Part shown: in pieces, positions 8,380 through 29,884 of the stretch
Layout: each line of letters begins with the position of its first letter
How positions within the stretch are numbered: position 1 is the first letter of the stretch
Source: Desulfatibacillum sp.
GTDB taxonomy: Bacteria; Desulfobacterota; Desulfobacteria; Desulfobacterales; SpSt-501
DNA: 64,000 nt
NCBI GenBank assembly: GCA_020725555.1
Contig: DYEU01000026.1
Span: forward strand, 115,693 to 179,692
Direction of reading: 5' to 3'
The notes under the pieces: model-generated
Told to the model about the DNA's origin: nothing
The model's input: the letters and a program-made list of their open reading frames with translations, nothing else
The model's database searches: none
Position numbers and translations under genes: made by a program

Positions 8380-8382
8380 GGG

Positions 8383-12477: not shown

Positions 12478-13656
12478 ATGACCGTCGCCCGGAAGATCGA
12501 GGAATTCATCCAGGCCTCCTCGTGGATCCGCCGCATGTTCGAGGAGGGGGCCGAGCTCAAGAAGGCCCACGGCGCGGCCAACGTCTTCGATTTCAGCCTC
12601 GGCAACCCCAACCTCCCGCCGCCGCCTTCTTTCCGGCGCGTGCTGCGCGAGATTCTGGAGCACGCCCCGGAGAGCGCCCACGCCTACATGGCCAACACGG
12701 GGCTTCCCGAGACCTGCGCCGCCGTGGCCGAGCGGCTCTCGGCCGAGCAGGGCGTGCGCGTCTCGGGCGCCGAGGTGATCATGACCTGCGGCGCGGCGGG
12801 GGCGCTGAACATCGCCTTCAAGGCCTTGCTCGACCCCGGCGACGAGGTGCTGGTCCCGGCGCCCTGCTTCGTCGAGTACGGCTTCTATGCCGACAACCAC
12901 GGCGGGGTGCTCAAGACCGTCCCCAGCCGGCCCGATTTTCAGCTCGATCTGGGGGCGATCGAGGCGGCCCTCGGCCCCCGCAGCAAGATCGTGCTGCTCA
13001 ACTCGCCCAACAACCCGACGGGGGTGGTCTACCCGGAGGAGAGCCTGCGCGCGCTGGGCCGGCTGCTCGAGGAGAAATCCCGCGCCCTCTCCCGCACCCT
13101 CTACCTCGTGGCCGACGAGCCCTACCGCCAGGTCGTCTTCGACGGGGTGCGCGTCCCGCCGCTCTTTTCCTGCTACCGGCAGAGCATCGTCTGCTCCTCC
13201 TACTCGAAGGACCTCTCCATCCCGGGCGAGCGGATCGGCTATGCGGCCGTCCACCCCGAGGCCGAGCACAAGAAGGCGCTGCTCGCCGGCATGGCGCTCG
13301 CCAACCGCATTCTCGGGTTCGTGAACGCGCCGGCGCTCATGCAGCGCGCCGTCGCGCGGCTCCAGGGCGAGCGCTGCGACGTCGCGGCCTACCGCCGCAA
13401 GCGGGATCTCCTCTGCGACGGGCTTGCGGCCGCAGGCTACGAGTTCATCCGGCCGCAGGGGACCTTTTACGTGTTTCCCCGCTCGCCGCTGGCCGACGAC
13501 GTCGCCTTCGTGCAGGCGCTGAAGAAGGAACGCGTCCTCGCCGTCCCCGGGCGGGGCTTTTTCGGGCCCGGCCACTTCCGCATCGCCTTCTGCGTGGAGG
13601 ACGCGGTGATCGAAAACGCTCTCCCCGCCTTCGCGCGGGCGATCCGGCGGCGCTGA
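12478..13656 (+). CDS. Class I/II PLP-dependent aminotransferase (aspartate aminotransferase-like)
   Basis: NSPNNPTGVVY and SYSKDLSIPGERIGY (PLP-lysine context). The track start is TTG 12472; ATG 12478 is preferred. Confidence 0.9.
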   Translation: MTVARKIEEFIQASSWIRRMFEEGAELKKAHGAANVFDFSLGNPNLPPPPSFRRVLREILEHAPESAHAYMANTGLPETCAAVAERLSAEQGVRVSGAEVIMTCGAAGALNIAFKALLDPGDEVLVPAPCFVEYGFYADNHGGVLKTVPSRPDFQLDLGAIEAALGPRSKIVLLNSPNNPTGVVYPEESLRALGRLLEEKSRALSRTLYLVADEPYRQVVFDGVRVPPLFSCYRQSIVCSSYSKDLSIPGERIGYAAVHPEAEHKKALLAGMALANRILGFVNAPALMQRAVARLQGERCDVAAYRRKRDLLCDGLAAAGYEFIRPQGTFYVFPRSPLADDVAFVQALKKERVLAVPGRGFFGPGHFRIAFCVEDAVIENALPAFARAIRRR

Positions 13657-14054: not shown

Positions 14055-14151
14055 CTCCCCGCGAACCTGGAACCCCTCCTGATTCCCGACCCCGGGACAC
14101 CCAGCAGCCGGAGCCTTCCCCCGAATTTTTGACCGAATAAATTTTTTTCTC

Positions 14152-14179
14152 TTGACAAATCCAATTAACTGAATGTAAT
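14152..14179 (+). promoter_or_regulatory. Sigma70-type promoter of the tetR-acs operon
   Basis: TTGACA (14152-14157), 16-nt spacer, TGTAAT (14174-14179), inside a ~110-bp AT-rich island (14121-14213). Confidence 0.45.
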
Positions 14180-14199
14180 CAGCTAATCGAATGAATCAG
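14171..14199 (+). promoter_or_regulatory. Candidate operator: tandem GAATG(T)AATCAG repeats overlapping the -10 and start-site region
   Basis: gaatgtaatcag (14171-14182) and gaatgaatcag (14189-14199). The first copy sits in the palindrome CTGA-atgtaa-TCAG. Confidence 0.3.
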
Positions 14200-14213
14200 G
14201 TTTAGATTTTAAT

Positions 14214-14894
14214 ATGCAAATCAACGACCAGCGCGGCCGTGCCCGGGAGCGCAGGCGCCAGCAGATCCTGGCGGCCGCCAAGCGCGTGTGCGCCCTCCAG
14301 GGGATCCACCGCTGCTCCACCCGGGACATCGCGGCCGCGGCCGAGCTCAGCCCGAGCGCCCTCTACCTTTATTTCCGCAACAAGGAAGAAATCATCGCCG
14401 CCCTCTCCATGCGCATCCTCAAGCACCTCGTGGTGCGGCTCACCTACTGCGAGGAAAAGGGGGATGTCCGCCTGGACGACCACCTCGCCGGATTGCGGCA
14501 GGCGCTGCTGGATGTCCGCCGGGTCGATCCGCTGCTCTTCGACTGGGTGCTGGGCCTGCAAAGCCACCGGTTTCTCGCCGCGATCGAGAAACCCCTGCTC
14601 CGGGAGGTCCAGGCGCTGCTCGACCAGGCGCTCGACATCCTCGCCCGCATTCTTGCGCGGTGCCGCGGGGCGGCCGGGGACGAACCCGGCTTCTCCCGCG
14701 CCCTGGCGACCGTGCTCTGGTCCTGTTTCACGGGGGTGGTGCTTCACGGCGAGAGGGGGTTCGTGTTGCGCAACCGGGAAAACGCCCTGGAGGAAACCCT
14801 CGAGGTCGCCTTCGAGGTGACCGCCCGGGGTTTTGAGAGGCTTGCGCCGGCGCGAGGAAACGGGACGTCCCCCGCGCTGCCGGCTGGGGTGTGA
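14214..14894 (+). CDS. TetR/AcrR family transcriptional regulator
   Basis: 226 aa. N-terminal HTH ...ILAAAKRVCALQGIHRCSTRDIAAAAELSPSALYLYFRNKEEI. Confidence 0.9.
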   Translation: MQINDQRGRARERRRQQILAAAKRVCALQGIHRCSTRDIAAAAELSPSALYLYFRNKEEIIAALSMRILKHLVVRLTYCEEKGDVRLDDHLAGLRQALLDVRRVDPLLFDWVLGLQSHRFLAAIEKPLLREVQALLDQALDILARILARCRGAAGDEPGFSRALATVLWSCFTGVVLHGERGFVLRNRENALEETLEVAFEVTARGFERLAPARGNGTSPALPAGV

Positions 14895-14930
14895 ACGCCG
14901 ACCGAGACGAACGCAACCAAGGAGGAGACG

Positions 14931-16961
<2,031 letters not shown>

Positions 16962-17044
16962 AAGCGGCCGGGCCGCCCGCCGCGGAGGGCGTTTGGACGG
17001 CCTCCCGCGGGGCGCGGCGGCGCCGCGGAAGAGGAGGGGGGACC

Positions 17045-18850
17045 ATGAGCGGCACCACCTGGGTCTACATCATGCTCGGCATCTACACGATCTATGCCTT
17101 CTACTGGGGCATCAAGGGCTACGTCACGGAGAAGACGTCGGCCGGTTACGCGATCGGGGGGCGGTCGATCCCGTTCATCGCCTTTCTCATGGCGGCGACG
17201 GCGGCCTCCTTTTCCGGCTGGACCTTCATCGGCCACCCGGGGCTCATCTGGCGCGACGGCCTCGCCTACGCCTTCGCCTCCTTCTACGTGCTCACCATCC
17301 CGATCACGGGGACCTTCTTCGCCAAGCGAAACTGGCTGCTCGGCAAGCGCTACGGGTTCATCACGCCGGGCGACATGTTCGCCTATTACTACAACTCCGA
17401 AACCGCCCGCTGGCTGACCGTGGCGACCTCGTTTCTCTACTCCATGTTCTACACCGCGGTTCAGCTCATGGCCTCGGCCGCCCTCTTTCACTGGGTCGCC
17501 GGGGTCCCCGTCACCTTCGGGGCGATCTTCATGGCCTTCATCTGCTGGTTCTACGTCTGCTCGGGGGGCATGAAGGCGAGCGCCTGGGTGGGCGTCCTGC
17601 AGTTCGTCCTGCTTGTCGGCGGCATCATCCTCATGGGCTACTACACGATCACCGCACCGGAGATCGGCGGCTGGAAAGGCATGTCCGAGGCGCTGCAGAA
17701 GCTCGACCGCAAGCTGCTCGAGGTCCCGGCCGTCCTGTTCTGGACCGAAAACGCCGCGGCCTACGCCAAGTCCCACGGGACGGTGATGTGGACCTCGCTC
17801 ATGTGCCTCACCTACATGTTCGCCCTGATGGGGATCCAGTCCTCGCCCGCCTTCACCATGTGGAACTTCGGCCAGAAGAGCCCCGCCCCGCTCGCCTGGC
17901 AGCAGACCTTCATGTCCACCTTCGTGGTGGGCTTCGCGCTCTTCTACTTCACCGCCTTCCAGGGGATGGGGGCGAAGATCCTCGAGCTCAAGGGGGTGCT
18001 CCAGTTCACCAAGGACAGCGACGTCGTGCCGATTCTCATGAAGACCTACCTGCCGCCGTTCGTCCTGGGACTCGTCTTCCTGGGGGCCATCGCGGCCATG
18101 CACTCGACCGCCGCCCCCTACATCAACACCGGCGGCTCGATCCTCCTGCGCGACGTCTACTGGCGCTACCTCCGCAGGCAGCAGGCCGGCCACAACGAGC
18201 AGATCTGGGTGAACCGGCTGCTCGCCACCGTGGTCACCGCCGCCGCCCTCGTGGTCGGGCTGCACTCGACCGCCGCCCTGGTCATCCTCGGGGCGCTCGC
18301 GACCGCCTTCGGGTTCGTGCAGTACATCTACCTTCTCGGCGTGAACTGGGGCTTCCGCTTCCCGGCGGTCGGCGCGAACCTGGGGGTGCTCGCGGGCATG
18401 GTCGCGGTCTTTCTCACCTATTACGTCTGGCCCAACCCGCTCTCCATGCACTGCGCCTTCTGGGGGCTCTTCACGGGCCTCGTGGTCGCCTACCTCTGCC
18501 GCCGCGTGGGGGTGAAGGACGACCCCGAGACCCTGCGGCGCCAGCAGGAGCTGCGCGCCTTCCTCAACGACATCGACGCCCCCTCGCCCTCGGGCCGCGC
18601 CTGGCGCCAGGCCATGAAGTGGATCGTCCCGATCTGGTATTTCTTCGCCATCGGCCCGGCCTGCATTCTCGGCAATTCCTCCTTCTCGTTCGCCGGCTTC
18701 CCGGCGCTGTGGTCCTGGCAGATCGCCTGGTGGATCCTCGGCATCGTCATGATGTGGGCGCTCACCTTCAAGGCCGAGATGGCGACCTGCACGGACCGCA
18801 TGCTCGAGCGCGCGGAGCGCGAGACGATGATCGTCGTGAAAGAGGCCTGA
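17045..18850 (+). CDS. Sodium:solute symporter (SSS/SLC5) family permease, predicted short-chain carboxylate uptake from context
   Basis: Track ORF 16814..18850 trimmed to ATG 17045 behind GAGGAGGGGGG. 601 aa, at least 13 hydrophobic helices, typical SSS N-terminus (YAIGGRSIPFIAFLMAATAASFSGWTFIG). Confidence 0.9.
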   Translation: MSGTTWVYIMLGIYTIYAFYWGIKGYVTEKTSAGYAIGGRSIPFIAFLMAATAASFSGWTFIGHPGLIWRDGLAYAFASFYVLTIPITGTFFAKRNWLLGKRYGFITPGDMFAYYYNSETARWLTVATSFLYSMFYTAVQLMASAALFHWVAGVPVTFGAIFMAFICWFYVCSGGMKASAWVGVLQFVLLVGGIILMGYYTITAPEIGGWKGMSEALQKLDRKLLEVPAVLFWTENAAAYAKSHGTVMWTSLMCLTYMFALMGIQSSPAFTMWNFGQKSPAPLAWQQTFMSTFVVGFALFYFTAFQGMGAKILELKGVLQFTKDSDVVPILMKTYLPPFVLGLVFLGAIAAMHSTAAPYINTGGSILLRDVYWRYLRRQQAGHNEQIWVNRLLATVVTAAALVVGLHSTAALVILGALATAFGFVQYIYLLGVNWGFRFPAVGANLGVLAGMVAVFLTYYVWPNPLSMHCAFWGLFTGLVVAYLCRRVGVKDDPETLRRQQELRAFLNDIDAPSPSGRAWRQAMKWIVPIWYFFAIGPACILGNSSFSFAGFPALWSWQIAWWILGIVMMWALTFKAEMATCTDRMLERAERETMIVVKEA

Positions 18851-18872
18851 TCCCGGGAAAGGAGACCTGCCC

Positions 18873-18959
18873 ATGAAATCCGAAGATCTCTGGATGATCG
18901 GCATCGTCCTGTTCTGCATCCTGTTCACGGCAAGCTTCGGCTGGGGGCTTTGGGGTTGA
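18873..18959 (+). CDS. 28-aa single-helix membrane peptide downstream of the SSS permease (below the track cutoff)
   Basis: Own translation: MKSEDLWMIGIVLFCILFTASFGWGLWG*. GGAGA 8 nt upstream of ATG 18873, 22 nt after the permease stop. Confidence 0.4.
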   Translation: MKSEDLWMIGIVLFCILFTASFGWGLWG

Positions 18960-19035
18960 CCCGGCCGGGCGATGCGCCGCCGGCGGGGGGCACCCCCCGC
19001 CGGCCCCACCCTTGCGTCGCGAGGAAAAGCGCCCG

Positions 19036-20943
19036 ATGACGAACCGCTACGAAGAAGACTACCGCCTGTCGATCCGGGACCCGGAGCGGTTCTGGGGGAC
19101 ACAGGCCGAGGCGATCGACTGGCACCGGCCCTGTGACCGCGTGCTCGACGACTCCCGCAAGCCCTTCACCCGCTGGTTTCCGGGAGGGGAGCTCAACACC
19201 TGCCACAACGCCCTCGACCGGCACGTCGCCCGGGGCCGCGGCCGGCAGGCGGCCCTGATCTACGACAGCCCGGTCACGGGAACGGTGCGCGCCTATACCT
19301 ACGAGGCGCTGCGCGACGAGACCGCCCGCTTCGCGGGCGTGCTCGCCGCCCTGGGTGTGCGCCGCGGCGACCGCGTCGTGATCTACATGCCGATGATCCC
19401 CGAGGCGGTGATCGCCATGCTGGGCTGCGCCCGGCTGGGTGCGGTGCACTCGGTCGTCTTCGGGGGCTTCGCCCCCCCGGAGCTCGCCGTGCGCATCGAC
19501 GATGCCGCGCCGAAGGTCGTCGTCTCCGCCTCCTGCGGCATCGAAGTGAACCGCCTGATCCCCTACAAGCCGCTCCTGGAGGCCGCGCTCGCCCGGGCCT
19601 CGGCCAAGCCCGAGCGCTGCCTCATCGTGCAGCGGCCGATGCACCGGGCCGAGCTCACCCCCGGCCGCGACCTCGACTGGGAGGAGGCCATGGCCCGGGC
19701 CGCGCCGCACGAGTGCGTCCCGGTGCGCGCGACCGACCCCCTCTACATCCTCTACACCTCCGGGACGACGGGGCTGCCCAAGGGGGTGGTGCGGGACAAC
19801 GGCGGCCATGCCGTGGCCCTGCACTACACGATGGGGGCGATCTACGGCATGCAGCCGGGCGAGGTGTACTGGGCGGCCTCGGACGTGGGCTGGGTGGTGG
19901 GCCATTCCTACATCGTCTACGGCCCTCTGCTGAAAGGATGCACGAGCATCCTCTACGAGGGAAAGCCCGTGGGGACGCCCGATGCCGGCGCCTTCTGGCG
20001 GGTGATCGCCCAGCACGGGGTGCGCTGCCTCTTCACCGCGCCGACCGCCTTCCGCGCCATCAAGCGGGAAGACCCCCGCGGGGAGATGCTGCGGCGCTAC
20101 GACCTCTCCGGCTTCCGGGCGCTCTTTCTCGCCGGCGAGCGGCTGGACCCCGACACGCTTCGCTGGGCCCAACGGCTGCTCGGGGTGCCCGTGATCGACC
20201 ACTGGTGGCAGACCGAGACCGGATGGGCAATCGCCGGCAACTGCCTCGGCCTGCATGCCTTTCCCGTCAAGGAGGGCTCGGCGACCAAGCCCGCCCCGGG
20301 CTGGGACCTGCAGGTCCTCGGCCCCGATGGGCAGCCCCTGCCCCCCGGCCAGATCGGCGCCCTCGTCGCCCGGCTGCCCCTTCCCCCGGGCACCCTGACG
20401 ACGCTGTGGAACAACGACGCCGGCTTCCTCAAGTCCTACATGGAGGAATTCCCCGGCTGCTACAAGACGGCCGATGCGGGCTTCATCGACGAGGAAGGCT
20501 ATGTCTACGTGATGTCGCGCACCGACGACATCATCAACGTCGCCGGCCATCGGCTTTCCACCGGCGCCATGGAGGAGGTGCTCGCCGACCACCCGGACGT
20601 GGCCGAGTGCGCCGTGCTCGGGGTCGAGGACCCCCTCAAGGGGCAGGTCCCGATCGGGTTTCTCGTGCTCAAGGCCGGCGTCGACCGCCCCCCCGAGCAG
20701 ATCGTCCGCGAGGTGATCCAGATGGTCCGCGACCGGATCGGCGCGGTCGCCTCCTTCAAGACGGCGACCGTGGTGAAGCGGCTGCCCAAGACCCGCTCCG
20801 GGAAGATCCTCCGCGGCACGATCCAGAAGATCGCCGACAACCGCCCCTGGAAAATGCCGGCCACGATCGACGACCCGGCCATCCTGGAGGAGATCCGCGA
20901 GGCGCTGCAGTCCCTCGGGTACGCCAAACCGCAGGGCGCGTAA
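19036..20943 (+). CDS. prpE: Propionate-CoA ligase / acyl-CoA synthetase (PrpE-like)
   Basis: Start at ATG 19036 (MTNRYEEDYRLSIRDPERFW). YTSGTTGLPKGV, HWWQTETGW, DDIINVAGHRLST, LPKTRSGKILRG. Confidence 0.88.
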   Translation: MTNRYEEDYRLSIRDPERFWGTQAEAIDWHRPCDRVLDDSRKPFTRWFPGGELNTCHNALDRHVARGRGRQAALIYDSPVTGTVRAYTYEALRDETARFAGVLAALGVRRGDRVVIYMPMIPEAVIAMLGCARLGAVHSVVFGGFAPPELAVRIDDAAPKVVVSASCGIEVNRLIPYKPLLEAALARASAKPERCLIVQRPMHRAELTPGRDLDWEEAMARAAPHECVPVRATDPLYILYTSGTTGLPKGVVRDNGGHAVALHYTMGAIYGMQPGEVYWAASDVGWVVGHSYIVYGPLLKGCTSILYEGKPVGTPDAGAFWRVIAQHGVRCLFTAPTAFRAIKREDPRGEMLRRYDLSGFRALFLAGERLDPDTLRWAQRLLGVPVIDHWWQTETGWAIAGNCLGLHAFPVKEGSATKPAPGWDLQVLGPDGQPLPPGQIGALVARLPLPPGTLTTLWNNDAGFLKSYMEEFPGCYKTADAGFIDEEGYVYVMSRTDDIINVAGHRLSTGAMEEVLADHPDVAECAVLGVEDPLKGQVPIGFLVLKAGVDRPPEQIVREVIQMVRDRIGAVASFKTATVVKRLPKTRSGKILRGTIQKIADNRPWKMPATIDDPAILEEIREALQSLGYAKPQGA

Positions 20944-20955
20944 GGGGGGGAGCCT

Positions 20956-20978
20956 CCGGGCCGCCGCCGGCGGCCCGG
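20956..20978 (+). other. Intercistronic GC hairpin between prpE and the receiver gene (no U-tract)
   Basis: ccgggccgcc-gcc-ggcggcccgg: perfect 10-bp stem with a 3-nt loop. Confidence 0.5.
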
Positions 20979-20989
20979 AACGGGGGCCC

Positions 20990-21361
20990 ATGGGCAAGAC
21001 CGTGTTGATCGTGGACGACGAGCCCAGCCTCATCGTCGCGCTGCAGTTTCTCCTTGAGGAAAACGGGTTCGAAACCCGGGTCGCCTTCAGCGGCGAGGAG
21101 GCGCTCGAGTCGATCGCCGCGCACCGGCCCGATCTCGTCCTCCTCGACATCATGCTGCCCGCGGTCGACGGCTTCGAGGTCTGCCGCCGCATCCGGGAAA
21201 ACCCGGAGACCCGCGACATCCGCATCGTCCTTCTCTCGGCGCTCGGGGGCCAGGCGCACATCACCCGCGGGATGGACCTCGGCGCCGACGCCTACATCAC
21301 CAAGCCCTTCTCCAACGCCGAGCTGCTCTCCCGCATCCGGGAACTGCTGGGATGCGCCTGA
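20990..21361 (+). CDS. Stand-alone response-regulator receiver (CheY-like)
   Basis: 123 aa. VLIVDDEPS, LVLLDIMLP (phospho-Asp), LLSALG, ITKPF are all present. No output domain. Confidence 0.92.
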   Translation: MGKTVLIVDDEPSLIVALQFLLEENGFETRVAFSGEEALESIAAHRPDLVLLDIMLPAVDGFEVCRRIRENPETRDIRIVLLSALGGQAHITRGMDLGADAYITKPFSNAELLSRIRELLGCA

Positions 21362-23487
21362 ACCTCTCCCCCGGCTCCTATGGGTTCGCCGTGCTGCTCG
21401 CCGCGGCCGCGGCGCTGGGGGGGGCCGCCCTCTTCGGGCTTCTGGCCTGGCGGGATCTCGACCCTGCCGAGCGGGCCGCAGCCGGCGAGCTCCTGCGGCG
21501 CAGCGGGCCCACCCTCGCCCTGGGGGGGTGCCTCGTGCTTCTCGTCGGCGGGATGCTCGTCGAATGGATCGACCGCCAGTACCGCAGGCCGCTCGGCCGC
21601 CTGCGGGAGCAGGTCTCGATCCTGCGCGGCCTTTCCCCCTCGCGGCGCATCCGCCCCGAGGGGGCCGCCGAGGTGCAGGGGCTGGCGGCGGAGATCAACG
21701 CCTTGTCCGATCTTCTCGAGGCGCGCCGCGAGAGCGTCGAAGAGCGCATCCGGGCCGCCCGCGGCGAGCTCGAGGAGGAAAAGCGCCTGCTCTCCGGCAT
21801 CCTGGCCGAGCTGCCCGAAGGGGTCCTCGTCTGCGACCCGGAGGGGCGGATCATCCTCTACAACGAGCGGGCCCGGCAATGGCTCGGGGACCCCCCGATC
21901 GGGCTGGGGCGTTCGCTGCTTTCGGTTTTCGACCCGGGGCTCTTCCGGCAGGCCCTGGAGGATGTCGCCTCGCGGCTCAAGCGGGCGGGCCGCGAGCCGG
22001 CCGTTTCCTTTGCCGCCCGGCTGCCGGGCGGCCGGCTGCTCCACACCACGATGGCGCCGCTGCTTGCGCCGACGCGCGAAATCCGCGGCGTGATCCTGAT
22101 CTTCGCCGACGCGACCGAAGCCGACGAGGCCGTGTGCCGGGGCGAAGAGGCCCTGGAGACCCACTTCTTCACCCTGCGGCGCTCCGTCGGCATCCTGCGC
22201 ACGACCGTCGAGATCCTGCGCGACGCCAAGGGGCTTCCCCCCGGGAAGCGGCGCGAATTCGAAGAGATCCTGGACCGCGAATCCCGCACCGCGGCCCAGG
22301 CGACCGAGGAGGCGGCGGCCGCCTGGGCCGCCCACCGCCCGCCCACCGGTGCGGTGTCGGCCATGCCGGCCGGCGATTTCCTGGAGCTGCTCGCCCGGAG
22401 GGTGCGGGGGCTCGGGGAGATCGACGTCCGCCGCGAGGTTCCGCACCCGACGCTCTGGGTCCGGGCCGACGGGCAGGCGATGGCCGCGGCGATCGTCTTT
22501 CTCCTGTCGCGGCTCGCCCCCCCGCCCGGCGGCCTGCGGCGGATTCATTGCCGCTGCACGCGCCGCGAGCACCGCGTGCTCGTCGACCTCGTCGGCACCG
22601 GCGCCCCCCCGGAGGCCGCCGCACAGGCCGCCTGGGAGCGGGAGCCGCTCGCGGTCGGCGGGGTCACCCTGAACACGACGCTGGCCGAGGTGTTCCGGCG
22701 GCACCGCGCCTCGTGGTGGGTGCTGCCGCCGGGGGAGTCGGCGGAGGGGACGCTCCGCGTGATGCTCGAGGCGGCCGGGCCTCCGGCCATCCCCCCGCCC
22801 CGCCGCACGACGCTTCTTGCCGGCTCCCGCCCGGTCTATTACGATTTCGACCTCTTCGCCGGACGCCGGGCCGGGGCGGCTCTGCTCGATCAGCCGCTCG
22901 GCCTGCTGGTCTGCACCGCCTTCGATACCGAAACCACGGGGTTGGACCCGGAGGGCGGCGACGAGATCATCGCCCTCGGCGCGGTGCGGATCGTGAACGG
23001 GAGGCTTCTCGAGTCGGAGGTCTTCGAGCGGCTCGTGCGGCCGGGGATCGACCCCCGGCCCGAGTCGGTGCGGATTCACGGCCTGGGGCCCGACATCCTG
23101 CGCGATCAGCCGGAGGCCGGGGCCGTGCTCGCCGAGTTTGCGCGCTTCGCCGAGGGGACGGTCCTGGTCGCCCACCACGCCGCCTTCGACATGCGCCTGC
23201 TCACGCTCCAGGGCGGCCGCGCCGGCGTGCGCTTCGACCAGCCGGTGCTCGACACCCTGTTGCTCTCGCTCGCCGTGCACCCGGGCCATGCGGACCACCG
23301 GCTCGAGGCGATCGCCGAGCGGCTGGGGGTGACGATCCGGGGGCGCCACACGGCCCTGGGCGACGCGCGGGCGGCGGCGGAGATTTTCCTGCGCCTCACC
23401 CCGCTCCTGGAGAAGGCGGGGATCGCGACCCTCGCCCAGGCGCTCGAGGCCTCGCGCGGCGCCCTCGAACGGCGCCTCAGGGGGTGA
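21352..23487 (+). CDS. Membrane sensor: 2TM-HAMP-PAS-degenerate histidine-kinase-like module fused to a DEDDh (DnaQ-like) 3'-5' exonuclease
   Basis: 711 aa. Start overlaps the receiver stop by 10 nt. TM segments FAVLLAAAAALGGAALFGLLAW and LALGGCLVLLVGGMLVEWI. HAMP-like YRRPLGRLREQV...EVQGLAAEINALSDLL. PAS-like LLSGILAELPEGVLVCDPEGRIILYNERARQWLG. Kinase-like region lacks a canonical H-box (ETHFFTLRRSVGILRTTVEIL), N-box Asn (FLLSRL) and G-boxes (DLVGTGA, GGVTLNTTL). Exo I FDTETTGL, Exo II LVAHHAAFDMRLL, Exo III HTALGDARAAAEIF are intact. Confidence 0.85.
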   Translation: MRLNLSPGSYGFAVLLAAAAALGGAALFGLLAWRDLDPAERAAAGELLRRSGPTLALGGCLVLLVGGMLVEWIDRQYRRPLGRLREQVSILRGLSPSRRIRPEGAAEVQGLAAEINALSDLLEARRESVEERIRAARGELEEEKRLLSGILAELPEGVLVCDPEGRIILYNERARQWLGDPPIGLGRSLLSVFDPGLFRQALEDVASRLKRAGREPAVSFAARLPGGRLLHTTMAPLLAPTREIRGVILIFADATEADEAVCRGEEALETHFFTLRRSVGILRTTVEILRDAKGLPPGKRREFEEILDRESRTAAQATEEAAAAWAAHRPPTGAVSAMPAGDFLELLARRVRGLGEIDVRREVPHPTLWVRADGQAMAAAIVFLLSRLAPPPGGLRRIHCRCTRREHRVLVDLVGTGAPPEAAAQAAWEREPLAVGGVTLNTTLAEVFRRHRASWWVLPPGESAEGTLRVMLEAAGPPAIPPPRRTTLLAGSRPVYYDFDLFAGRRAGAALLDQPLGLLVCTAFDTETTGLDPEGGDEIIALGAVRIVNGRLLESEVFERLVRPGIDPRPESVRIHGLGPDILRDQPEAGAVLAEFARFAEGTVLVAHHAAFDMRLLTLQGGRAGVRFDQPVLDTLLLSLAVHPGHADHRLEAIAERLGVTIRGRHTALGDARAAAEIFLRLTPLLEKAGIATLAQALEASRGALERRLRG

Positions 23488-26215
23488 GCGCCGGCGGCGG
23501 GGGGGGAGGGGGCCTGAGCGGCAGGCCGAAATGAAACGCGGCGCCGCCCTCGGGGCCCGATGCGGCGCGGATCCAGCCCCCGTGGTGCTCGAGGATCCGG
23601 CGCACGATGGCCAGCCCGAGGCCCGTGCCGGCCAGACGGCCCCGCGGGCCGCGGCGGCGCACCTGGTAGAAGGCCTCGAAGACGGCCTCGCGGTCCTCGG
23701 CCGGGATGCCGGGGCCGTTGTCGCTCACGACCCCGGTGATCTCGTCCCCGCGGCGCTCGAGGCGGACGTCGATCCGGCCGCCGGTGTCGGGGCAGAACTT
23801 CAGGGCGTTCGACAGCAGGTTGAGGGCGACCTGCAGCAGGCGGTCGCGATCCCCGAAGACCGGCGGGAGCGTTTCCGGTTCCTCGAGCGCGAGGCGGATT
23901 CCCCGCTCCTCGAGCATCGGCCGCATCGCGGCGGCCGCCTCGCGCCAGACCTCCCGCAGGTCCAGGGGGAGCGGCTGCCCGAGGGACTTGCCGCTTTCGA
24001 GCCGCTGGAAATCGAGCACCTGGTTCACCAGCCGCCCCAGGCGCTCGCTTTCCTTCACCACGACCGCGGTCAGGCTCCGGCGGCGCTCCTCGGGCATCCG
24101 CGGGTGCGCCTGCAGCGATTCGGCGATGGAGCGCACCGCGGCGAGCGGGGTTCGCAGCTCATGGGTGACGGTGGCAATGAACTCGTCCTTCAAGCGGTCG
24201 AGTTCTTCGAGGCGCCGGTTGGCGGCGCGCAGCTCCTCGGCGAGCTTTTCGAGCTCGCGGCTGTAGCTGATGGCGGCCCGGTTTTCCTCGAGGATCTCGA
24301 GGAGCTCCTCGGCGCGAAGCGGTTTCTCCTGCACGACCGAGGCGACCATCACGCGGGCCGAGGCCGAGCCGACGGCACCCGCGAGCAGCCCCTCGGCGAA
24401 GGTGACGAGCGCCGGGTCGGCCGGCCGCCCCGGCCTCGGCCGCAACCCGTGATGGCGCGCGAACTCGCCCAGGGCCTCCTCGGTCCGCTCCCGGCCGAGG
24501 AAACGCTCGAGCAGAAGCCGGAGATCCCGAACGCGGGCCGTTCCCCGCCACAGCGGCACCGCCTCCGGCCGGGCGGGGAAGGCGAAGGCGTCGACGAAAA
24601 GCTCCGCCTGCGCCCGCTCCGCGGCCGGCGGCGTGCCGAGGAGCGAGAGCCCGGTGAAGAGGCCGAGGTTGACGAGCAGGCTCCAGAAGAAGGCATGGGC
24701 GATCGGGTTCAGGCCCTCGAGGCCCATCAGGTGGCCGGGCCGGAGCCAGCCCCAGCCTGCCGGGCCGTGGGCGACGATCGCCTCCCCGAGGAGGCCGGCG
24801 TCCACCAGCGAGGGCACGATCAGGGTGTAGAACCAGACGGCGAAGCCGCCGATCAGCCCGGCCAGGGCGCCGCGGCGGGTGGCGTGCTTCCAGAAGAGGC
24901 CGCCGAGGAGGGCCGGGGCGAACTGCGCGACCGCCACGAAGGAGATTTGGCCGAGCGCGACCAGGGAGTGCATCTGCCCGATCGCGCGGTAGTAGGCGTA
25001 GCCCGAGGCGAGAACGAGGACGATGCAGGCGCGACGCAGGACGAGGATCCCGCGGCGGGGGTCCCGCTCCAGGGAAAGCGGCCGGCCGGGCAGCCGCAGC
25101 CAGAGCGGCAGCAGGAGGTCGTTGGCGATCATGGTCGCGAGAGCCACCGACTCGACGATCACCATCGCGGTCGCCGCCGACATGCCGCCCACGAAGGCGA
25201 CGAGCGCCAGCCCCTCCCGCTGCAGGGCGAGCGGCAGCGTGAGGCCGAAGGTGTCCGCGTCCACCCCGCCGGGAAACTGGAGGCTGCCGGCCACGGCGAT
25301 CGGCAGGACGAAGAGGTTGATCGCCCAGAGGTAGAGCGGAAAGAGCCACAGTGCCTTTCCCAGGTGCTCTTCGCTCACGTTTTCGACCACGGCCACGTGG
25401 AACTGGCGCGGGAGGCAGAGAAAGGCGAGAAACGAGAGCAGCATCTCGAGCGACCACCCCAGGGGCTCGGCGCGCGGGTGGGCGGCGGCGAGAATCTCCT
25501 GCAGCCGCGGCTCGGCCGCGGCGCGGCCGAAGAGGGCGGCGGGGCCGCCGAAGGCGGCCAGAGTGAAGAGCCCGACGGCGACAAAGGCGGCGAGCTTCAC
25601 GATCGACTCGAAGGCCACGGCGGCCACGATCCCCTCGTGGCGCTCGGTGGCCTCGAGCTTGCGCGTGCCGAACAGCATGGCGAAGAGGGCGAGGAGCCAG
25701 GCCACGTGGAAGGAGGTGTCCTCCAGTACGGGCTTGGCTTCCAGGTGCCGCGGCATGATGATCAGGGGCGCGTGGCTCAGGATGTCGAAGCCGTCGGCGA
25801 CGGCCTTGAGCTGGAGGGCGATGTAGGGGATCAGCCCCAGCAGGGCGAAGCAGGTCACCGCGGCGGCGAGGGCCGCGCTCTTGCCGTAGCGGGAGGAGAG
25901 AAAATCGGCGATCGAGGTGGTGCGGTGGGCTTTCCCGATGCGGATCATCTTGCGCATCACCGTAAAGCCCAGCGCGCAGGCGAGCGTCGGCCCCAGGTAG
26001 GTGGGCAGGAAGGCCGGCCCCTCCGCGGCGGCGCGGCCGACGCTGCCGTAGAAGGTCCAGGCCGTGCAGTACACGGCGAGCGAGAGCGCGTAGACGTAAG
26101 GGTTGGCGATCGCGCTGCGGCCGCGCTCCGCCCGCCGGTCGGCCCAAAAGGCGACGGCAAAAAGCAGGCCCACGTACCCGAGGGCCACGGCGAGGATGAG
26201 CGGCGCGCCCAGCAC
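23477..26215 (-). CDS. SLC5/SSS-domain-fused sensor histidine kinase (CbrA/CrbS-like, no receiver domain)
   Basis: 912 aa, GTG start. N-terminal ~500 aa polytopic SSS-like domain, linker (LGEFARHHGL...LLAGAVGSASARVMVASVV), H-box ATVTHELRTPLAAV, N-box LLSNALKF, G1 DNGPGI, G2 GTGLGLAIV. The 3' end overlaps the convergent sensor-exonuclease gene by 11 nt. Confidence 0.9.
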   Translation of the reverse strand: MLGAPLILAVALGYVGLLFAVAFWADRRAERGRSAIANPYVYALSLAVYCTAWTFYGSVGRAAAEGPAFLPTYLGPTLACALGFTVMRKMIRIGKAHRTTSIADFLSSRYGKSAALAAAVTCFALLGLIPYIALQLKAVADGFDILSHAPLIIMPRHLEAKPVLEDTSFHVAWLLALFAMLFGTRKLEATERHEGIVAAVAFESIVKLAAFVAVGLFTLAAFGGPAALFGRAAAEPRLQEILAAAHPRAEPLGWSLEMLLSFLAFLCLPRQFHVAVVENVSEEHLGKALWLFPLYLWAINLFVLPIAVAGSLQFPGGVDADTFGLTLPLALQREGLALVAFVGGMSAATAMVIVESVALATMIANDLLLPLWLRLPGRPLSLERDPRRGILVLRRACIVLVLASGYAYYRAIGQMHSLVALGQISFVAVAQFAPALLGGLFWKHATRRGALAGLIGGFAVWFYTLIVPSLVDAGLLGEAIVAHGPAGWGWLRPGHLMGLEGLNPIAHAFFWSLLVNLGLFTGLSLLGTPPAAERAQAELFVDAFAFPARPEAVPLWRGTARVRDLRLLLERFLGRERTEEALGEFARHHGLRPRPGRPADPALVTFAEGLLAGAVGSASARVMVASVVQEKPLRAEELLEILEENRAAISYSRELEKLAEELRAANRRLEELDRLKDEFIATVTHELRTPLAAVRSIAESLQAHPRMPEERRRSLTAVVVKESERLGRLVNQVLDFQRLESGKSLGQPLPLDLREVWREAAAAMRPMLEERGIRLALEEPETLPPVFGDRDRLLQVALNLLSNALKFCPDTGGRIDVRLERRGDEITGVVSDNGPGIPAEDREAVFEAFYQVRRRGPRGRLAGTGLGLAIVRRILEHHGGWIRAASGPEGGAAFHFGLPLRPPPPPPPALTP

Positions 26216-26221
26216 GGCGCC

Positions 26222-26440
26222 TCAGGGGCCGCCCCCGCGGTCGGGGGGGCTCTCGCGGGAGACGAGGGCGATCAGCGCGGTCAGACCCGCCCAGGCGAGG
26301 TAGAGGTAGACGTAGAGGAGGGGGAGCTCCAGGATTCCGGCCGGTTGGGCGAACAGCGAAAGCATCGGGGGGTTGAGGAGCAGGCACCCCAGCAGGAAGA
26401 CGACCCATCTGCGGTCGTTGCGGCCGGCATTCGGCTCCAT
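26222..26440 (-). CDS. 72-aa two-helix membrane protein (DUF3311-like / CbrX-like leader ORF) upstream of the SLC5-kinase
   Basis: MEPNAGRNDRRWVVFLLGCLLLNPPMLSLFAQPAGILELPLLYVYLYLAWAGLTALIALV... Stop is 6 nt before the kinase GTG. This pattern resembles small ORFs that precede SSS transporters (recollection). Confidence 0.55.
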   Translation of the reverse strand: MEPNAGRNDRRWVVFLLGCLLLNPPMLSLFAQPAGILELPLLYVYLYLAWAGLTALIALVSRESPPDRGGGP

Positions 26441-26499
26441 CGCCTGGACCCCGTTCGGCGGCGCGGCGCCCCCCCCGTCGCGGGCGGGGCCGTGATGCC

Positions 26500-26529
26500 G
26501 CTATAGAGAAATGGTGCCGCCCTTGTCAA
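26500..26529 (-). promoter_or_regulatory. Sigma70-type promoter candidate for the small ORF / SLC5-kinase operon
   Basis: On the minus strand: TTGACA (comp 26524-26529), 18 nt, TATAGC (comp 26500-26505), about 55 nt upstream of ATG 26440. Confidence 0.3.
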
Positions 26530-26553
26530 ACGGAAGCTCGGAGGGGAGGCAGG

Positions 26554-28884
26554 ATGAAGGAGTCCCGGATCGAGGTTCTCGCCCGGATCAAGCCTTTCGG
26601 TGAGCTCCCCGGCCGGGAGCTCGGCGAGATCGCCGCTGCGCTCGCGCCGATGCGCTTTGCGGCCGGCACGCTCCTTGCGGTCCAGGGGCGCAGCACGCTC
26701 GACTACGTCTACATCGTCCGCTCGGGCCGCCTGGAGCTTTTTTTCGAAGAGCCCGGCAAGAAAACCCTCCGTGCGGAGCTCGCCCCCGGGGACATCTTCG
26801 GGGCGGTCTCCATCCTGTTCAACGGCGGGCTCGCCATCCGCAGCCTGCGCGCGCTCGAGGAGGCCGAGCTCTGGCTGATCCCCCGCCAGCGGTTTCTCGA
26901 CCTCTGCCGGCGCCACGCCCGGCTCACCGCCCATTTCGAGGGCGTGTTCAGCGAGCGGATGCAGAACGAGGAGTACGCGCGCAGCCTCGCCGGCTCTCTG
27001 CTCACGCAGTTTCTCGCGCGCATCCCCCCGTTTTCCTTTCTGCCGGAGGAGGAGCTCCGCCGTCTCGCCCCGCACCTCCGGCGGCTTTTCATCCCCCGGG
27101 GGACCCGGCTCTTCGTCCAGGGCGAATCGCGCGTCGACGGGCTCTACATCCTGCAGAGCGGCGCGGCCGAGCGCTTCTACGAGGAGCACGGCGAGCGCCG
27201 GCTGGTCAGCGTCATGGGGGAGGGGGAGATCTTCGGGGGGATCTCCCTGCTGGTGAACGACATGCTCGCCGTGCGCTCGCTGCGGACGATCGAGGATTGC
27301 CTTTTCTGCAAGCTCGATTGCGACGCCTTCTTCGACCTCTGCCGCCGCTACCCCCTCTTTAGCGAGTTCTTCACCGACGCCTTCGGCAAGCGCATGCTCG
27401 ACCGCACCTACGCGGCGATCATCGCCAAGGGCGAGGCGGTCGACACCGGGCCGGTCGCCTTCTTCGACCAGCCCGTCGCCGGGGTGTGCTCCCGGGAGCT
27501 CCTCGCCTGCGAGGCCGGCCTGTCGATCCGCGAGGCGGCCGAGCGCATGAGCGCCCGCCGCTGCAGCAGCATCTTCGTCCGTGACGAGGGGGGGCGGCCG
27601 TCCGGGATCGTCACCGACAGCGACATCCGCAGCCGGGCCGTGGCCGCCGGCCGCGACCCCGAGGAGCCGGTGGCGGCGATCATGAGCACGCCCCTCCGGA
27701 CGGTCCCCGAGAAGGCCTCCGTCTTCGAGGCCCTCATGGCGATGATGCAGCACGGGATCAAGCACCTCGCCGTGACCGGCGAGGAGGGGGGGGTCGTCGG
27801 CGTGGTCACCCAGCAGGACATTCTCGGCCGCCAGGGGATCTCCCCCTGGCGGCTGCTCCGGGACGTGGCCGGCGAGTCGCGGCCGGAGGTCTTCAAGACC
27901 CTCGGCCTCCGGCTGCCGCGGATCCTCCAGGGGTTCATCCGCTCGGGCACGACGGCCGACCAGATCAACCGCTTCATCACCGCCTTCACGGACGCCGTGC
28001 TCGAGCGGCTCTGCCGCGCGGCGCTGGCCGACCTGGGGCCCCCGCCCGGGCCCTTCGCCTTTTTGCTCCTCGGCAGCGAGGGCCGCCGGGAACAGACCCT
28101 CTGCACGGACCAGGACAACGCGATCCTCTACGAGGACCCGCCGCCGGGGCGGGAGGAGGCGGTGCAGGCGTGGTATCTGCGCTTCGGCGAACGCGTGTGC
28201 GCGGATCTCGACCGGGCGGGGTTCCGGCGCTGCCGGGCCGAGGTCATGGCGAGCAACCCGAAGCTGTGCCGGCCGTTTTCGGTGTGGCTGCGCCGGTTTC
28301 AGGACTGGATCCACGCCGCCGAGGCCGAGGACCTGCTCTACGCCAGCATCTTCTTCGATTTCCGGCTCGGCTTCGGCGACCCGGGGCTCGTCGAGCGGCT
28401 GCGGGCCTCCCTCAGCCGGGAGATCGCCGGCTGGACGGGGTTTTTGCGCCACCTCGCGCTGAACGCGCTCCACACCCGGCCGCCGATCGGGATCTTCCGC
28501 AACTTCATTCTCGAGTCGAAGGGCGAGCACCGCCGCAAGCTCGACATCAAGCGCGCCATGCTGCCGATCGTGGACGCCGCCCGGATCTACGCCCTGAAGC
28601 ACGCCGTCGCCGAAACCAACACGCTCGCCCGGCTGCGGCAATGGCAGGCGTTGCCGGGAGCGGCGGCGCGGGAGATCCAGGAGATCGAGCAGGGCTACCG
28701 CTTTCTCATGCAGCTGCGGCTCGCCCACCAGGCCGAGCAGATGACGCACCCCGGCCAGGCGGCGGACAACCACATCGACCCGCGGACCCTCTCCGGGATG
28801 GAACAGCGCCTGCTGAAGGAGGTCTTCCTGCGGATCGCCGGTCTGCAGACCCGCCTGAGCCTCGAATGGACGGGGGAGCCCTGA
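26554..28884 (+). CDS. 2x cNMP-binding + CBS pair + DUF294 nucleotidyltransferase + DUF294_C protein
   Basis: 776 aa. Two cyclic-nucleotide-binding-like beta-barrels (GDIFGAVSILFNGGLAIRSLRA; GEIFGGISLLVNDMLAVRSLRT). CBS pair (SSIFVRDEGGRPSGIVTDSDI; KHLAVTGEEGGVVGVVTQQDIL). NTase core FAFLLLGSEGRREQTLCTDQDNAILYED. C-terminal helical domain with IKRAMLPIVDAARIYAL. Confidence 0.9.
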   Translation: MKESRIEVLARIKPFGELPGRELGEIAAALAPMRFAAGTLLAVQGRSTLDYVYIVRSGRLELFFEEPGKKTLRAELAPGDIFGAVSILFNGGLAIRSLRALEEAELWLIPRQRFLDLCRRHARLTAHFEGVFSERMQNEEYARSLAGSLLTQFLARIPPFSFLPEEELRRLAPHLRRLFIPRGTRLFVQGESRVDGLYILQSGAAERFYEEHGERRLVSVMGEGEIFGGISLLVNDMLAVRSLRTIEDCLFCKLDCDAFFDLCRRYPLFSEFFTDAFGKRMLDRTYAAIIAKGEAVDTGPVAFFDQPVAGVCSRELLACEAGLSIREAAERMSARRCSSIFVRDEGGRPSGIVTDSDIRSRAVAAGRDPEEPVAAIMSTPLRTVPEKASVFEALMAMMQHGIKHLAVTGEEGGVVGVVTQQDILGRQGISPWRLLRDVAGESRPEVFKTLGLRLPRILQGFIRSGTTADQINRFITAFTDAVLERLCRAALADLGPPPGPFAFLLLGSEGRREQTLCTDQDNAILYEDPPPGREEAVQAWYLRFGERVCADLDRAGFRRCRAEVMASNPKLCRPFSVWLRRFQDWIHAAEAEDLLYASIFFDFRLGFGDPGLVERLRASLSREIAGWTGFLRHLALNALHTRPPIGIFRNFILESKGEHRRKLDIKRAMLPIVDAARIYALKHAVAETNTLARLRQWQALPGAAAREIQEIEQGYRFLMQLRLAHQAEQMTHPGQAADNHIDPRTLSGMEQRLLKEVFLRIAGLQTRLSLEWTGEP

Positions 28885-29266: not shown

Positions 29267-29884
29267 TCAGGGGAGGTCTTCGGGGGGGGCGGGGGCGATC
29301 GCGCGGCGGCAGATCTCCCAGAGGGGGCGGTAGCCCGCGGAGAGGTTGAAGCGGTAGTCGTCGAGGGCCCAGAGGGTCACCAGGCCCTGGATCATGCTGA
29401 AGAGCAGGAGCGCCACCGCCTGCGGGTCGGTCCCTTCGCGGATCTCGCCGCGGGCTGCGCCGTCGGCGACCAGGCGGCCCAGGCGCTCGAGGTAGACCGC
29501 GAGTTTGTCGTGGACCTCGCGGTTGAGGCGGCGGTCCCCGAAGCTCAGGATCTCGGCGATCACGAGAAAGGCCATGCCGCGGCGCTGCTCGATCTCGGAG
29601 AGGTGATCCTCCTGGATCCGGCCGATCCGCTCGAGGGTGCCCCCCGGCCCGGAGGAGACACGCTCGACCTCGGCGACCAGGGTGTCGAGGATATCGTCGA
29701 CGAGGAAGAGCAGCACCTCGCGTTTGCTGCGGAAGTGGCGGTAGATGGCGGCCTCGGTCAGCCCCACCTCGCGTGCCATGGCCCGCACCGTGAGGTGCTC
29801 GCTTCCCTTGCGGATGATCAGCTTGCGGGCGGCGTCGAGAATCTCCCGCTTGCGGACGGCGCTGCTGCGGCGGTGCTGGCTCAT
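29267..29884 (-). CDS. TetR/AcrR family transcriptional regulator
   Basis: Only the last 205 codons of the artefactual 998-aa track ORF 29267..32263. ATG comp(29882-29884). HTH LTVRAMAREVGLTEAAIYRHFRSKREVL. Confidence 0.9.
   Translation of the reverse strand: MSQHRRSSAVRKREILDAARKLIIRKGSEHLTVRAMAREVGLTEAAIYRHFRSKREVLLFLVDDILDTLVAEVERVSSGPGGTLERIGRIQEDHLSEIEQRRGMAFLVIAEILSFGDRRLNREVHDKLAVYLERLGRLVADGAARGEIREGTDPQAVALLLFSMIQGLVTLWALDDYRFNLSAGYRPLWEICRRAIAPAPPEDLP

Follow-up and report, generated by a model that had tools for sequence, protein, structure and literature searches.

Among the genes that depend most strongly on the two-component system CrbS/CrbR (MxtR/ErdR) in Pseudomonas is a pair encoding a protein with cyclic-nucleotide-binding (cNMP), CBS and DUF294 domains and a DEDDh exonuclease (PP_0354-PP_0353; Pflu5625; PA3233-PA3232). 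Pflu5625 lies within the CrbS/R regulon (PMC5715377); PP_0354-PP_0353 is an operon bound and controlled by ErdR, in which deletion of the exonuclease gene impairs growth on pyruvate (PMC9927547); and PA3232-PA3235 are up-regulated 16-fold on propionate (PMC9765439). Deletion of either gene of the pair reduces growth on propionate, and the authors of that study, who suggest control by protein modification, call the function unclear and still offer no mechanism (bioRxiv 10.64898/2026.09.07.749794). A CrbR-binding (ACTU) motif has been defined for Gammaproteobacteria. The association of DUF294, a DnaQ-like exonuclease and acetate/propionate genes is, therefore, already known, though without a mechanism. 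Here, we analysed a stretch of 64,000 nucleotides from Desulfatibacillum sp. (contig DYEU01000026.1, hereafter the window), which carries a module of five signalling parts next to genes for acyl-CoA ligases and a solute symporter. The parts are a CbrX-like peptide, a histidine kinase fused to an SLC5 transporter domain, a receiver-only regulator, a kinase-like scaffold devoid of the phospho-acceptor histidine and fused to a DEDDh exonuclease, and a DUF294 protein gated by CBS (and, in part of the family, cNMP) domains. We regard the module as a two-component system built on an SLC5 kinase, whose proposed output, of a nuclease type, would be unprecedented.

With CrbS/CrbR the module shares an SLC5-fused kinase linked to acs and to carboxylate symporters, and with the CrbS/CrbR target operon it shares the cNMP/CBS/DUF294 protein, the DEDDh exonuclease and the link to acetate, propionate and pyruvate. 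The differences are, however, substantial: the module kinase lacks the C-terminal receiver of CrbS, no LuxR-type CrbR is encoded in the locus, the exonuclease belongs to another DnaQ subfamily and is fused to a dead kinase, and its tie to the two-component system is made by gene fusion and tight adjacency, not by transcription. In a literature search that left out much of the subscription literature, no paper was found on the kinase-like exonuclease, on its receiver or on their linkage to an SLC5 kinase or DUF294, a survey of HEPN proteins contains no whole-word match to DUF294, and a preprint on a PHB two-component system of Cupriavidus proved unrelated. The original prediction for this DNA, made from the letters and open reading frames (ORFs) alone, had correctly named both the published link of DUF294 and a DnaQ-like exonuclease to acs-actP and the absence of an assigned function for the pair.

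The GC content of the window is about 71%, which produces long spurious ORFs on both strands. Genes were, therefore, picked by a GC content at third codon positions (GC3) of at least 0.88, with one ORF per locus, and their domains were confirmed with Pfam and NCBIfam. The ORFs that passed were exactly the genes listed in the original prediction, the 28-aa peptide included, thus confirming the gene block as genuine. Its centre begins with the 123-aa receiver-only protein (20990-21361, plus strand; Pfam Response_reg 6.8e-30), whose gene overlaps by 10 nt that of a 711-aa protein with PAS and RNase_T domains in Pfam (21352-23487, plus strand), which we call HKexo. The latter is convergent with the gene of the 912-aa SSF-HisKA-HATPase_c kinase (23477-26215, minus strand) and overlaps it by 11 nt. 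A 72-aa ORF with two transmembrane (TM) segments lies directly upstream of the kinase (26222-26440, minus strand), its end being separated from the kinase start by 7 nt, and a 776-aa protein with two cNMP domains, two CBS domains, DUF294 and DUF294_C in Pfam is encoded divergently (26554-28884, plus strand). The junctions are thus short or overlapping, as had been noted. The HKexo and DUF294 genes are separated by the minus-strand kinase and peptide genes.

HKexo is a membrane-anchored pseudo-histidine-kinase fused to an intact DEDDh exonuclease. To describe it, we used an alignment (A1) of 21 full-length homologues with 34-90% identity, and the invariance reported below refers to these sequences. 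The N-terminal part (residues 7-153; 21370..21810, plus strand, as for the whole gene) comprises a TM hairpin whose outer loop is very short, a HAMP-like helix-connector-helix and a signalling helix, corresponding to the helices predicted by AlphaFold2 at residues 7-34, 38-93 and 106-153. It is followed by a PAS domain (residues 154-258; 21811..22125; Pfam PAS_4 6.9e-11) with invariant L169-Y-N and G184-L-G-R-S, by a pseudo-kinase of DHp-like and CA-like parts recognised by profile matches (residues 259-475; 22126..22776), by an invariant R-P-x-Y-Y-D-F-D-L-F motif (residues 493-502; 22828..22857), and by a DnaQ/PolC-type DEDDh exonuclease domain (residues 509-711; 22876..23484; Pfam RNase_T 3.1e-32). 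The AlphaFold2 model, with a predicted local distance difference test score (pLDDT) of 74.8, displays the TM hairpin, the HAMP-like helices, the PAS domain, a two-helix DHp, an alpha/beta CA-like domain, a disordered linker and the exonuclease. Compared with the PDB, the family profile aligned residues 57-477 with 4i5s, the structure of the VicK/CovS kinase (3e-21), and the C-terminus with 2p1j, the PolC-type exonuclease from T. maritima (8e-42). The best Foldseek matches of the model were the WalK, VicK and YF1 kinases (1e-19 to 1e-11), with PolC for the C-terminus. The VicK profile match and Foldseek together show that the HAMP-PAS-DHp-CA fold is present; the NCBIfam WalK model also aligns, to residues 56-258. 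The HAMP domain named in the original prediction has no Pfam match, and the only support for it comes from the 4i5s match, which starts at residue 57 and at the HAMP of VicK, and from the predicted helices.

The kinase-like middle part is strongly diverged. As a single sequence, the DHp/CA region gave no match in the PDB and no significant BLASTP similarity to the neighbouring kinase; only family profiles matched, with DivL (4q20) in first place (3.5e-8) and WalK-type kinases next. In the profile alignment to WalK and DivL, the position of the phospho-acceptor histidine is occupied in the window by F273 (nt 22168-22170), and the invariant R276 corresponds to the arginine of SHELRTPL. None of 86 relatives has a histidine at this position; 41 have Glu and 9 have Asp, and the acidic residue in these 50 of 86 might mimic a phosphorylated histidine. 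The ATP site is degenerate as well, since the Asn of the N-box is replaced (R387 region), the G2 box is absent, and only a G1-like D412...G417 is kept. The exonuclease domain, on the other hand, retains all its catalytic residues: D525 and E527 (Exo I, DxE), D613 (Exo II, D), and H666 and D671 (Exo III, H-x4-D) are invariant. The label of a pseudo-histidine-kinase with an intact exonuclease is correct because no phospho-acceptor histidine is present, the N-box and the G2 box are missing, and the five DEDDh residues never vary. The Tyr-Tyr motif falls within a predicted flexible linker (pLDDT below 50 at residues 479-499), and is a candidate regulatory or modification site; a role in nucleotidylation is speculation. 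A minority of relatives (P0328, P0350, P0361, P0386, P0404 and P0407) are about 500-535 aa long, with the exonuclease aligned from about residue 280, and are probably soluble versions without the TM/HAMP part.

Source annotations of such proteins read, for example, "DNA polymerase III subunit epsilon", PolC and DnaQ are the nearest among the solved structures, and a generic Cas-associated DEDDh model matches HKexo, all of which might point to a Pol III epsilon-like proofreading or repair exonuclease, or to an anti-phage nuclease, lying beside metabolic genes by chance. The curated models do not bear this out. HKexo scored 98.6 bits on TIGR01406 (cut-off 222.7), 96.3 on NF004316 (cut-off 196) and 103.7 on PolC (cut-off 873), that is, under the cut-offs of all the epsilon and PolC models, and in NCBIfam the family exceeds the cut-off of no curated model. 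The defence-system models gave generic DEDDh matches only, and the DUF294 protein had no PADLOC match. HKexo is, moreover, membrane-anchored and fused to a sensor scaffold, and the genes that accompany it are those of a kinase, a receiver, DUF294 and acs rather than replication or defence genes. Given the curated cut-offs, the context and the merely generic defence matches, we rejected both the proofreading and the defence readings as extremely improbable.

The identity of the exonuclease domain was then judged against the known pair, of which the original prediction had taken it to be one half. On NF006601, the model of the standalone PP_0353-type partner of about 210 aa, the HKexo domain reached 95.6 bits (cut-off 189), as compared to 285 for the standalone canonical partner encoded in locus L004. 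As a sub-threshold match placed at the C-terminus of a 711-aa protein, it was ruled out as that partner. Its identity is 37-44% to the exonuclease domains that are fused to CBS-DUF294, vs. 34% to the canonical standalone protein, and it belongs with the fused ones, its nearest relatives. The L004 contig carries, at 2485-4963 and 6675-13497, both a canonical set (acs-DUF485-ActP, cNMP/CBS/DUF294 and a standalone exonuclease) and a separate kinase/receiver/HKexo/CBS-DUF294 module; the two systems therefore coexist and are not redundant.

Single-chain fusions of exonuclease, CBS and DUF294 gave 718 matches, and all 120 listed contain RNase_T, CBS, DUF294 and DUF294_C. They are about 700 aa long with the exonuclease at the N-terminus, include hundreds of Burkholderiales proteins, and in one case adjoin acs-DUF4212-SSF. 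Because the two enzymes occur in one chain, they most probably act together, and we regard this fusion pattern as the strongest evidence for it.

The wiring of an exonuclease into a two-component pathway had been presented as special to this DNA, whereas the data clearly show a large family. An exhaustive HMMER scan (E<=1e-30, clusters at 50% identity) placed the HKexo relatives in 853 clusters, nearly all of the 150 best-scoring matches being full length; a scan of one genome per species gave at least 585 relatives, and a word-indexed search about 25 full-length ones. The relatives come mainly from Betaproteobacteria (Rhodocyclaceae, Burkholderiales) and from metagenome-assembled genomes of Desulfobacterales. 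Cultured hosts include Thauera, Azoarcus, Denitromonas, Methylibium and Noviherbaspirillum, and the family is also found in Accumulibacter, Zoogloea and Dechloromonas.

Synteny was counted by mapping the window proteins with tblastn onto the 80 best loci. A receiver gene stands immediately upstream of the HKexo gene in 76 of 79 loci. The SLC5 kinase is present in 66 of 77, directly upstream on the same strand in 53 of 69; DUF294 occurs in 60 of 78 and immediately downstream in 51 of 74; and acs was found in 35 of 57. In Betaproteobacteria the genes usually run acs, small peptide, SLC5 kinase, receiver, HKexo and CBS-DUF294, while in the window and its closest relatives the kinase is inverted and DUF294 bears cNMP domains. 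Other gene orders occur too, differing among Desulfobacterales, Betaproteobacteria and other loci. Such a shuffled order with a constant content argues for functional linkage, and the gene set recurs in dozens of genomes, with proteins 34-90% identical, which is more than chance. The genes are, thus, clearly co-conserved, and the exonuclease does form part of a kinase-like sensory scaffold beside a receiver and an SLC5 kinase, as the original prediction had it. In eleven loci (L027, L033, L039, L041, L049, L050, L052, L061, L079, L080 and L087), HKexo is followed by a tandem pair of DUF294 genes; the first DUF294 of such pairs, seen in many Rhodocyclaceae loci, shows no CBS match in tblastn.

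The kinase of the module resembles CbrA of Pseudomonas, for which a cryo-EM structure of the CbrXA complex is available (10ED; PMC13022988). Residues 7-469 matched the SLC5-STAC structure of CbrA, 10ED (2.3e-71), with a partial SSF match in Pfam, and the core carries HisKA (2.3e-16) and HATPase_c (2.2e-28) with THELRTPL, NLLSNA, DNGPG and GTGLGL all in place. The N, G1 and G2 boxes can be recognised, and the phospho-acceptor histidine is present in 74 of 74 SLC5-kinase orthologues. Judged by its sequence, the protein is an SLC5-fused sensor histidine kinase of the CbrA/CrbS class with an intact catalytic core. Compared with CbrA it has no PAS domain, and compared with CrbS no C-terminal receiver, the sequence ending after HATPase_c. 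At the place expected for STAC lies a linker of about 130 residues, which is 40-86% identical among the module kinases and has no significant match in the PDB, CbrA included, and none in Pfam.

Directly upstream of the SLC5 kinase, homologues of the 72-aa peptide were found in 47 loci, forming a two-TM family with the consensus RLVALFLLGCxLFNYPxLSLF...GIPLLYxYLFxAW. In CbrXA, too, the gene just before that of the kinase encodes a small membrane peptide of two helices, CbrX, which packs against the SLC5 domain of CbrA (PMC13022988); this domain is homologous to that of the module kinase. Neither the linker nor the peptide of the module, however, has detectable sequence similarity to the STAC domain of CbrA or to CbrX, and the partner of the module kinase is receiver-only, not an NtrC-type CbrB. 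The peptide family had no sequence match to any PDB chain and resembles DUF3311 and DUF4212 weakly; on DUF3311 (PF11755), 4 of 18 members matched (best E 0.013), and the window copy did not. The earlier designation of the window ORF as DUF3311-like is thus weak, and CbrX-like describes it better. This description is by analogy of position and topology, as sequence homology to CbrX could not be shown.

The receiver retains D9, D10, D53, S83 and K105, that is, all the phospho-acceptor residues, and tblastn (E<=1e-3) revealed no other receiver domain in the 64-kb window. Being the only partner present, it is likely phosphorylated by the SLC5 kinase, as adjacency and knowledge of these families suggest.

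The DUF294 protein had Pfam matches to DUF294 (8.9e-44), DUF294_C (1.9e-40), cNMP_binding (1.9e-33) and CBS (4.7e-24), all four above threshold, and weak matches to GlnE and GlnD_UR_UTase. The motifs of Pol-beta nucleotidyltransferases are invariant in 30 sequences (G79, S80, D91, D93 and D174 in the numbering of alignment A3): the GSEGR...TDQDN motif never varies, and the third Asp lies in an FDF motif. A confident model of DUF294 (pLDDT 90.6, predicted template modelling score 0.88) gave only three significant matches in the PDB, all to the two nucleotidyltransferase domains of E. coli GlnE (3k7d, E 6.6e-7, TM-score 0.64; 1v4a, E 5e-6, TM-score 0.57). Aminoglycoside nucleotidyltransferases came next at E>0.1, and no CCA-adding enzyme, poly(A) polymerase, terminal transferase or cGAS/CD-NTase was matched in the PDB. 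The 776-aa protein is, as this model predicts, a sensor-gated GlnE-like nucleotidyltransferase. It shares with GlnE and GlnD the two-domain architecture of a nucleotidyltransferase and a helical substrate-binding part, as well as metabolite-sensing regulatory domains, but it has a single nucleotidyltransferase unit gated by CBS/cNMP-like domains, and its partner is a DEDDh hydrolase instead of a second nucleotidyltransferase or an HD domain. Read by eye, both cNMP domains (26554-27420) carry FGA/FGG and RSL in place of the FGE and R[ST]A of the canonical phosphate-binding cassette; they may not bind cAMP or cGMP. Of the 60 DUF294 genes in the related loci, only 11 have cNMP domains.

These data bear directly on a writer/eraser scheme, in which DUF294 would extend an RNA 3' end or make a nucleotide signal and the exonuclease, gated by the two-component system, would remove or degrade the product. 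A nucleotidyltransferase paired or fused with a hydrolase is the classic layout of opposing activities, the fusion and synteny are strong, the catalytic residues of both enzymes are conserved, and DEDDh enzymes do act on 3' ends and short oligonucleotides. The structural matches of DUF294, however, are confined to protein-adenylyltransferase domains and include no RNA-tailing or cGAS-like enzyme, so that the role of an RNA 3'-end writer, put forward in the original prediction, is disfavoured. Nor did a candidate RNA emerge: Rfam reported no RNA family in the block, its sole match in the window being a distant tRNA gene (35638-35711, minus strand). We, therefore, consider a substrate shared by the two enzymes unlikely.

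Instead, we prefer a scheme in which each enzyme acts as its relatives do, namely a receiver-gated exonuclease together with a protein-nucleotidylating DUF294, and we propose it tentatively, as a possibility still short of an even chance when taken as a whole. The transporter-like kinase would report carboxylate binding or flux and phosphorylate the adjacent receiver. Once phosphorylated, the receiver would dock on the DHp-like helices of the dead kinase in the way that DivK~P binds DivL, a pseudokinase of Caulobacter. DivL likewise has a PAS-bearing histidine kinase fold devoid of the phospho-acceptor histidine and is paired with a single-domain receiver, and it is the best structural-sequence relative of the DHp/CA part of HKexo, which supports the comparison. 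DivL, however, relays to CckA and has no enzymatic output, whereas the module scaffold is fused to an exonuclease, and receiver binding by this scaffold is proposed by analogy. Docking of the receiver, together with the PAS and TM/HAMP inputs, would switch the C-terminal exonuclease on or off; such gating is plausible on the DivL precedent. The exonuclease would trim a nucleic-acid 3' end, the likeliest substrate being an RNA that limits the uptake or activation of short-chain fatty acids, and the membrane anchor would put it near transporter mRNAs under translation at the membrane. The presence of acs in 35 of 57 loci and of symporters flanking the module supports the link to short-chain fatty acids, as do the propionate and pyruvate phenotypes and the induction reported for the canonical pair (PMC9927547; bioRxiv 10.64898/2026.09.07.749794; PMC9765439).

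In the same scheme, DUF294 would nucleotidylate a protein in response to the adenine-nucleotide or cNMP status, with the exonuclease as the likeliest target and its invariant Tyr-Tyr linker as a candidate site. A precedent, and no more than that, is offered by the type VII toxin-antitoxin systems, where MNT nucleotidyltransferases AMPylate HEPN RNases on Tyr; there, too, a nucleotidyltransferase of the Pol-beta superfamily is encoded beside a nuclease. The nucleotidyltransferase and nuclease families are, however, unrelated to those described here, our context is metabolic, and no sequence or structure match was obtained. Finally, since the DNA-binding proteins of the locus are two TetR regulators only, with no DNA-binding response regulator among them, we propose that the output would be post-transcriptional, with transcription left to the TetR repressors.

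The GlnE-like fold and the constant association with acyl-CoA ligases and symporters would also suit a switch of reversible protein nucleotidylation under two-component control. DUF294 would then AMPylate or UMPylate Acs, the PrpE-like ligase, the symporter or the Tyr-Tyr linker, and the DEDDh domain, gated by the receiver docked on the dead kinase, would act as a de-nucleotidylase that removes the nucleoside monophosphate (NMP). The cleavage of Tyr-O-P-5'-nucleoside to 5'-NMP has formally the same bond geometry as 3'-exonucleolysis, and control by protein modification was suggested for the Pseudomonas pair as well (bioRxiv 10.64898/2026.09.07.749794). The analysis identified no target protein. 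The known erasers are the second nucleotidyltransferase domain of GlnE, the HD domain of GlnD, SidD and Fic enzymes, and to our knowledge no DEDDh enzyme de-nucleotidylates proteins. We consider this reading quite improbable, and prefer the scheme of a receiver-gated exonuclease and a protein-nucleotidylating DUF294.

Several observations weigh against the preferred scheme. The positions that contact the regulator differ between the real and the dead DHp domains (F vs. A at +12, I/M vs. N/T at +15), and the similarity of real and dead DHp residues within the same genome, although above shuffles (z 4.6), is confounded by phylogeny (clade structure); neither comparison, therefore, establishes that one receiver docks on both proteins. 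DUF294 is not nearby in about a quarter of the loci, and Azoarcus and Thauera have a symporter after the exonuclease gene instead. Exonuclease-DUF294 fusions, P0027 for example, lack the Tyr-Tyr motif, which therefore cannot serve as the acceptor site everywhere. With both cNMP domains devoid of the canonical Glu of the phosphate-binding cassette, sensing of cAMP is uncertain. The closeness of the exonuclease domain to DNA proofreading domains says nothing about RNA vs. DNA as the substrate.

The differing contact residues also favour a dead kinase that mainly modulates the SLC5-kinase pathway, serving the receiver as a sink, scaffold or connector, with the output elsewhere, for example through a distant DNA-binding regulator, and with the exonuclease and DUF294 as separate members of the regulon. 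Single-domain receivers often serve as phosphate sinks. In Pseudomonas, moreover, the pair is a plain transcriptional target of CrbS/R (PMC5715377, PMC9927547). Against this, the fusion of exonuclease and scaffold has been kept over 853 diverged clusters with invariant catalytic residues, the receiver gene is translationally coupled to the HKexo gene, and no other regulator is conserved in the loci. We thus consider a mere sink or scaffold rather unlikely.

The findings make the role of the pair testable, since an exonuclease placed within a sensor scaffold beside a receiver predicts protein-protein contacts, and the resemblance of DUF294 to a protein adenylyltransferase narrows the choice of assays. 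If the preferred mechanism is true, the module would represent a widespread two-component pathway with a nuclease output instead of a transcription factor, and the second example, after DivL, of a dead kinase reading a phosphorylated receiver. The family is experimentally reachable thanks to its cultured hosts, and acetate uptake by Accumulibacter, Zoogloea and Dechloromonas matters in wastewater treatment.

The metabolic part of the block lies upstream on the plus strand. Its first gene encodes a TetR-family regulator (14214-14894; GC3 0.88; Pfam TetR_N 5.6e-15), and a TetR is found in the equivalent position in loci L001, L002, L008, L009, L011, L012, L014 and L018. Upstream of it lies an AT-rich island (14120-14213), sharp against the 71% GC background. 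Reading its sequence at 14152-14213 (plus strand), we found TTGACA (14152-14157), a spacer of 16 nt and TGTAAT (14174-14179), as well as repeated half-sites of the AATCAG/CTGAAT type, so that the island looks like a candidate promoter with TetR operators.

The next gene encodes acetate-CoA ligase (Acs; 14931-16961, plus strand), as assigned by NCBIfam with 775 bits on NF001208 (cut-off 657) and 757 bits on TIGR02188 (cut-off 725); Acs is 76-94% identical in the syntenic loci. It is followed by a permease of the sodium:solute symporter family (SSF; 17042-18850, plus strand; Pfam SSF 1.5e-33), whose start was placed at a Met yielding 602 aa, near the 601 aa of L001 and L002. An ActP orthologue was ruled out for this permease, the ActP models scoring 24-37 bits vs. 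cut-offs of 750-1099.

After the permease comes a single-TM 28-aa ORF (18873-18959, plus strand), preceded by an AGGAG ribosome-binding site 8 nt upstream. The peptide, MK.ED.WMIGIV.FCILFTASFGWGLWG, has no Pfam match and is kept after the same type of permease in 11 of 11 loci examined. The ribosome-binding site and this conservation indicate that the ORF is a real gene, and the hydrophobic micro-protein is probably an unannotated accessory subunit of the transporter. Between this ORF and the PrpE-like gene, at 18979-19004 (plus strand), lies a perfect 11-bp GC stem, CCGGCGGGGGG-CACC-CCCCCCGCCGG; it was rejected as a structured element because it folds no better than shuffled GC-rich sequence (z -0.62).

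The PrpE-like AMP-forming acyl-CoA ligase (19036-20943, plus strand), for which the ATG at 19036 gives 635 aa, equal to L001 and L002, has PrpE as its best NCBIfam match. It scored 755 and 726 bits on the propionate-CoA ligase models, under their cut-offs of 955 and 827, and was likewise under the cut-offs of the Acs models; its substrate is not assignable from these scores.

In the 113-bp divergent intergenic region between the 72-aa peptide and DUF294 genes, the minus strand carries TTGACA (26529-26524), 18 nt and TATAGC (26505-26500). TGTCAAA and TATA do not vary among six loci in which the homologues of the exonuclease protein are only about 43-76% identical to that of the window, the minus-strand form in these loci being TTGACA, 18 nt, TATA(G/T)(C/A). 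This conservation suggests that 26500-26529 (minus strand) is likely a sigma-70-like promoter of the peptide-kinase operon. The consensus promoter scan made no calls, this element and the candidate promoter upstream of tetR included, and terminator-like matches were near the shuffle expectation. The region of the peptide-kinase promoter overlaps whatever drives DUF294.

The genes enumerated in the original prediction are real, but the conserved block runs on beyond DUF294 to a second TetR-family gene (about 29297-29884, minus strand), which closes it. This gene is hidden within a long spurious ORF and was located by tblastn, with 84% identity to the TetR that follows DUF294 in L002 and 59% to that of L001. 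It is followed, as in L001 and L002, by a PALP-family enzyme (30086-31492) and then, by synteny, by a phosphoglycerate-dehydrogenase-like gene.

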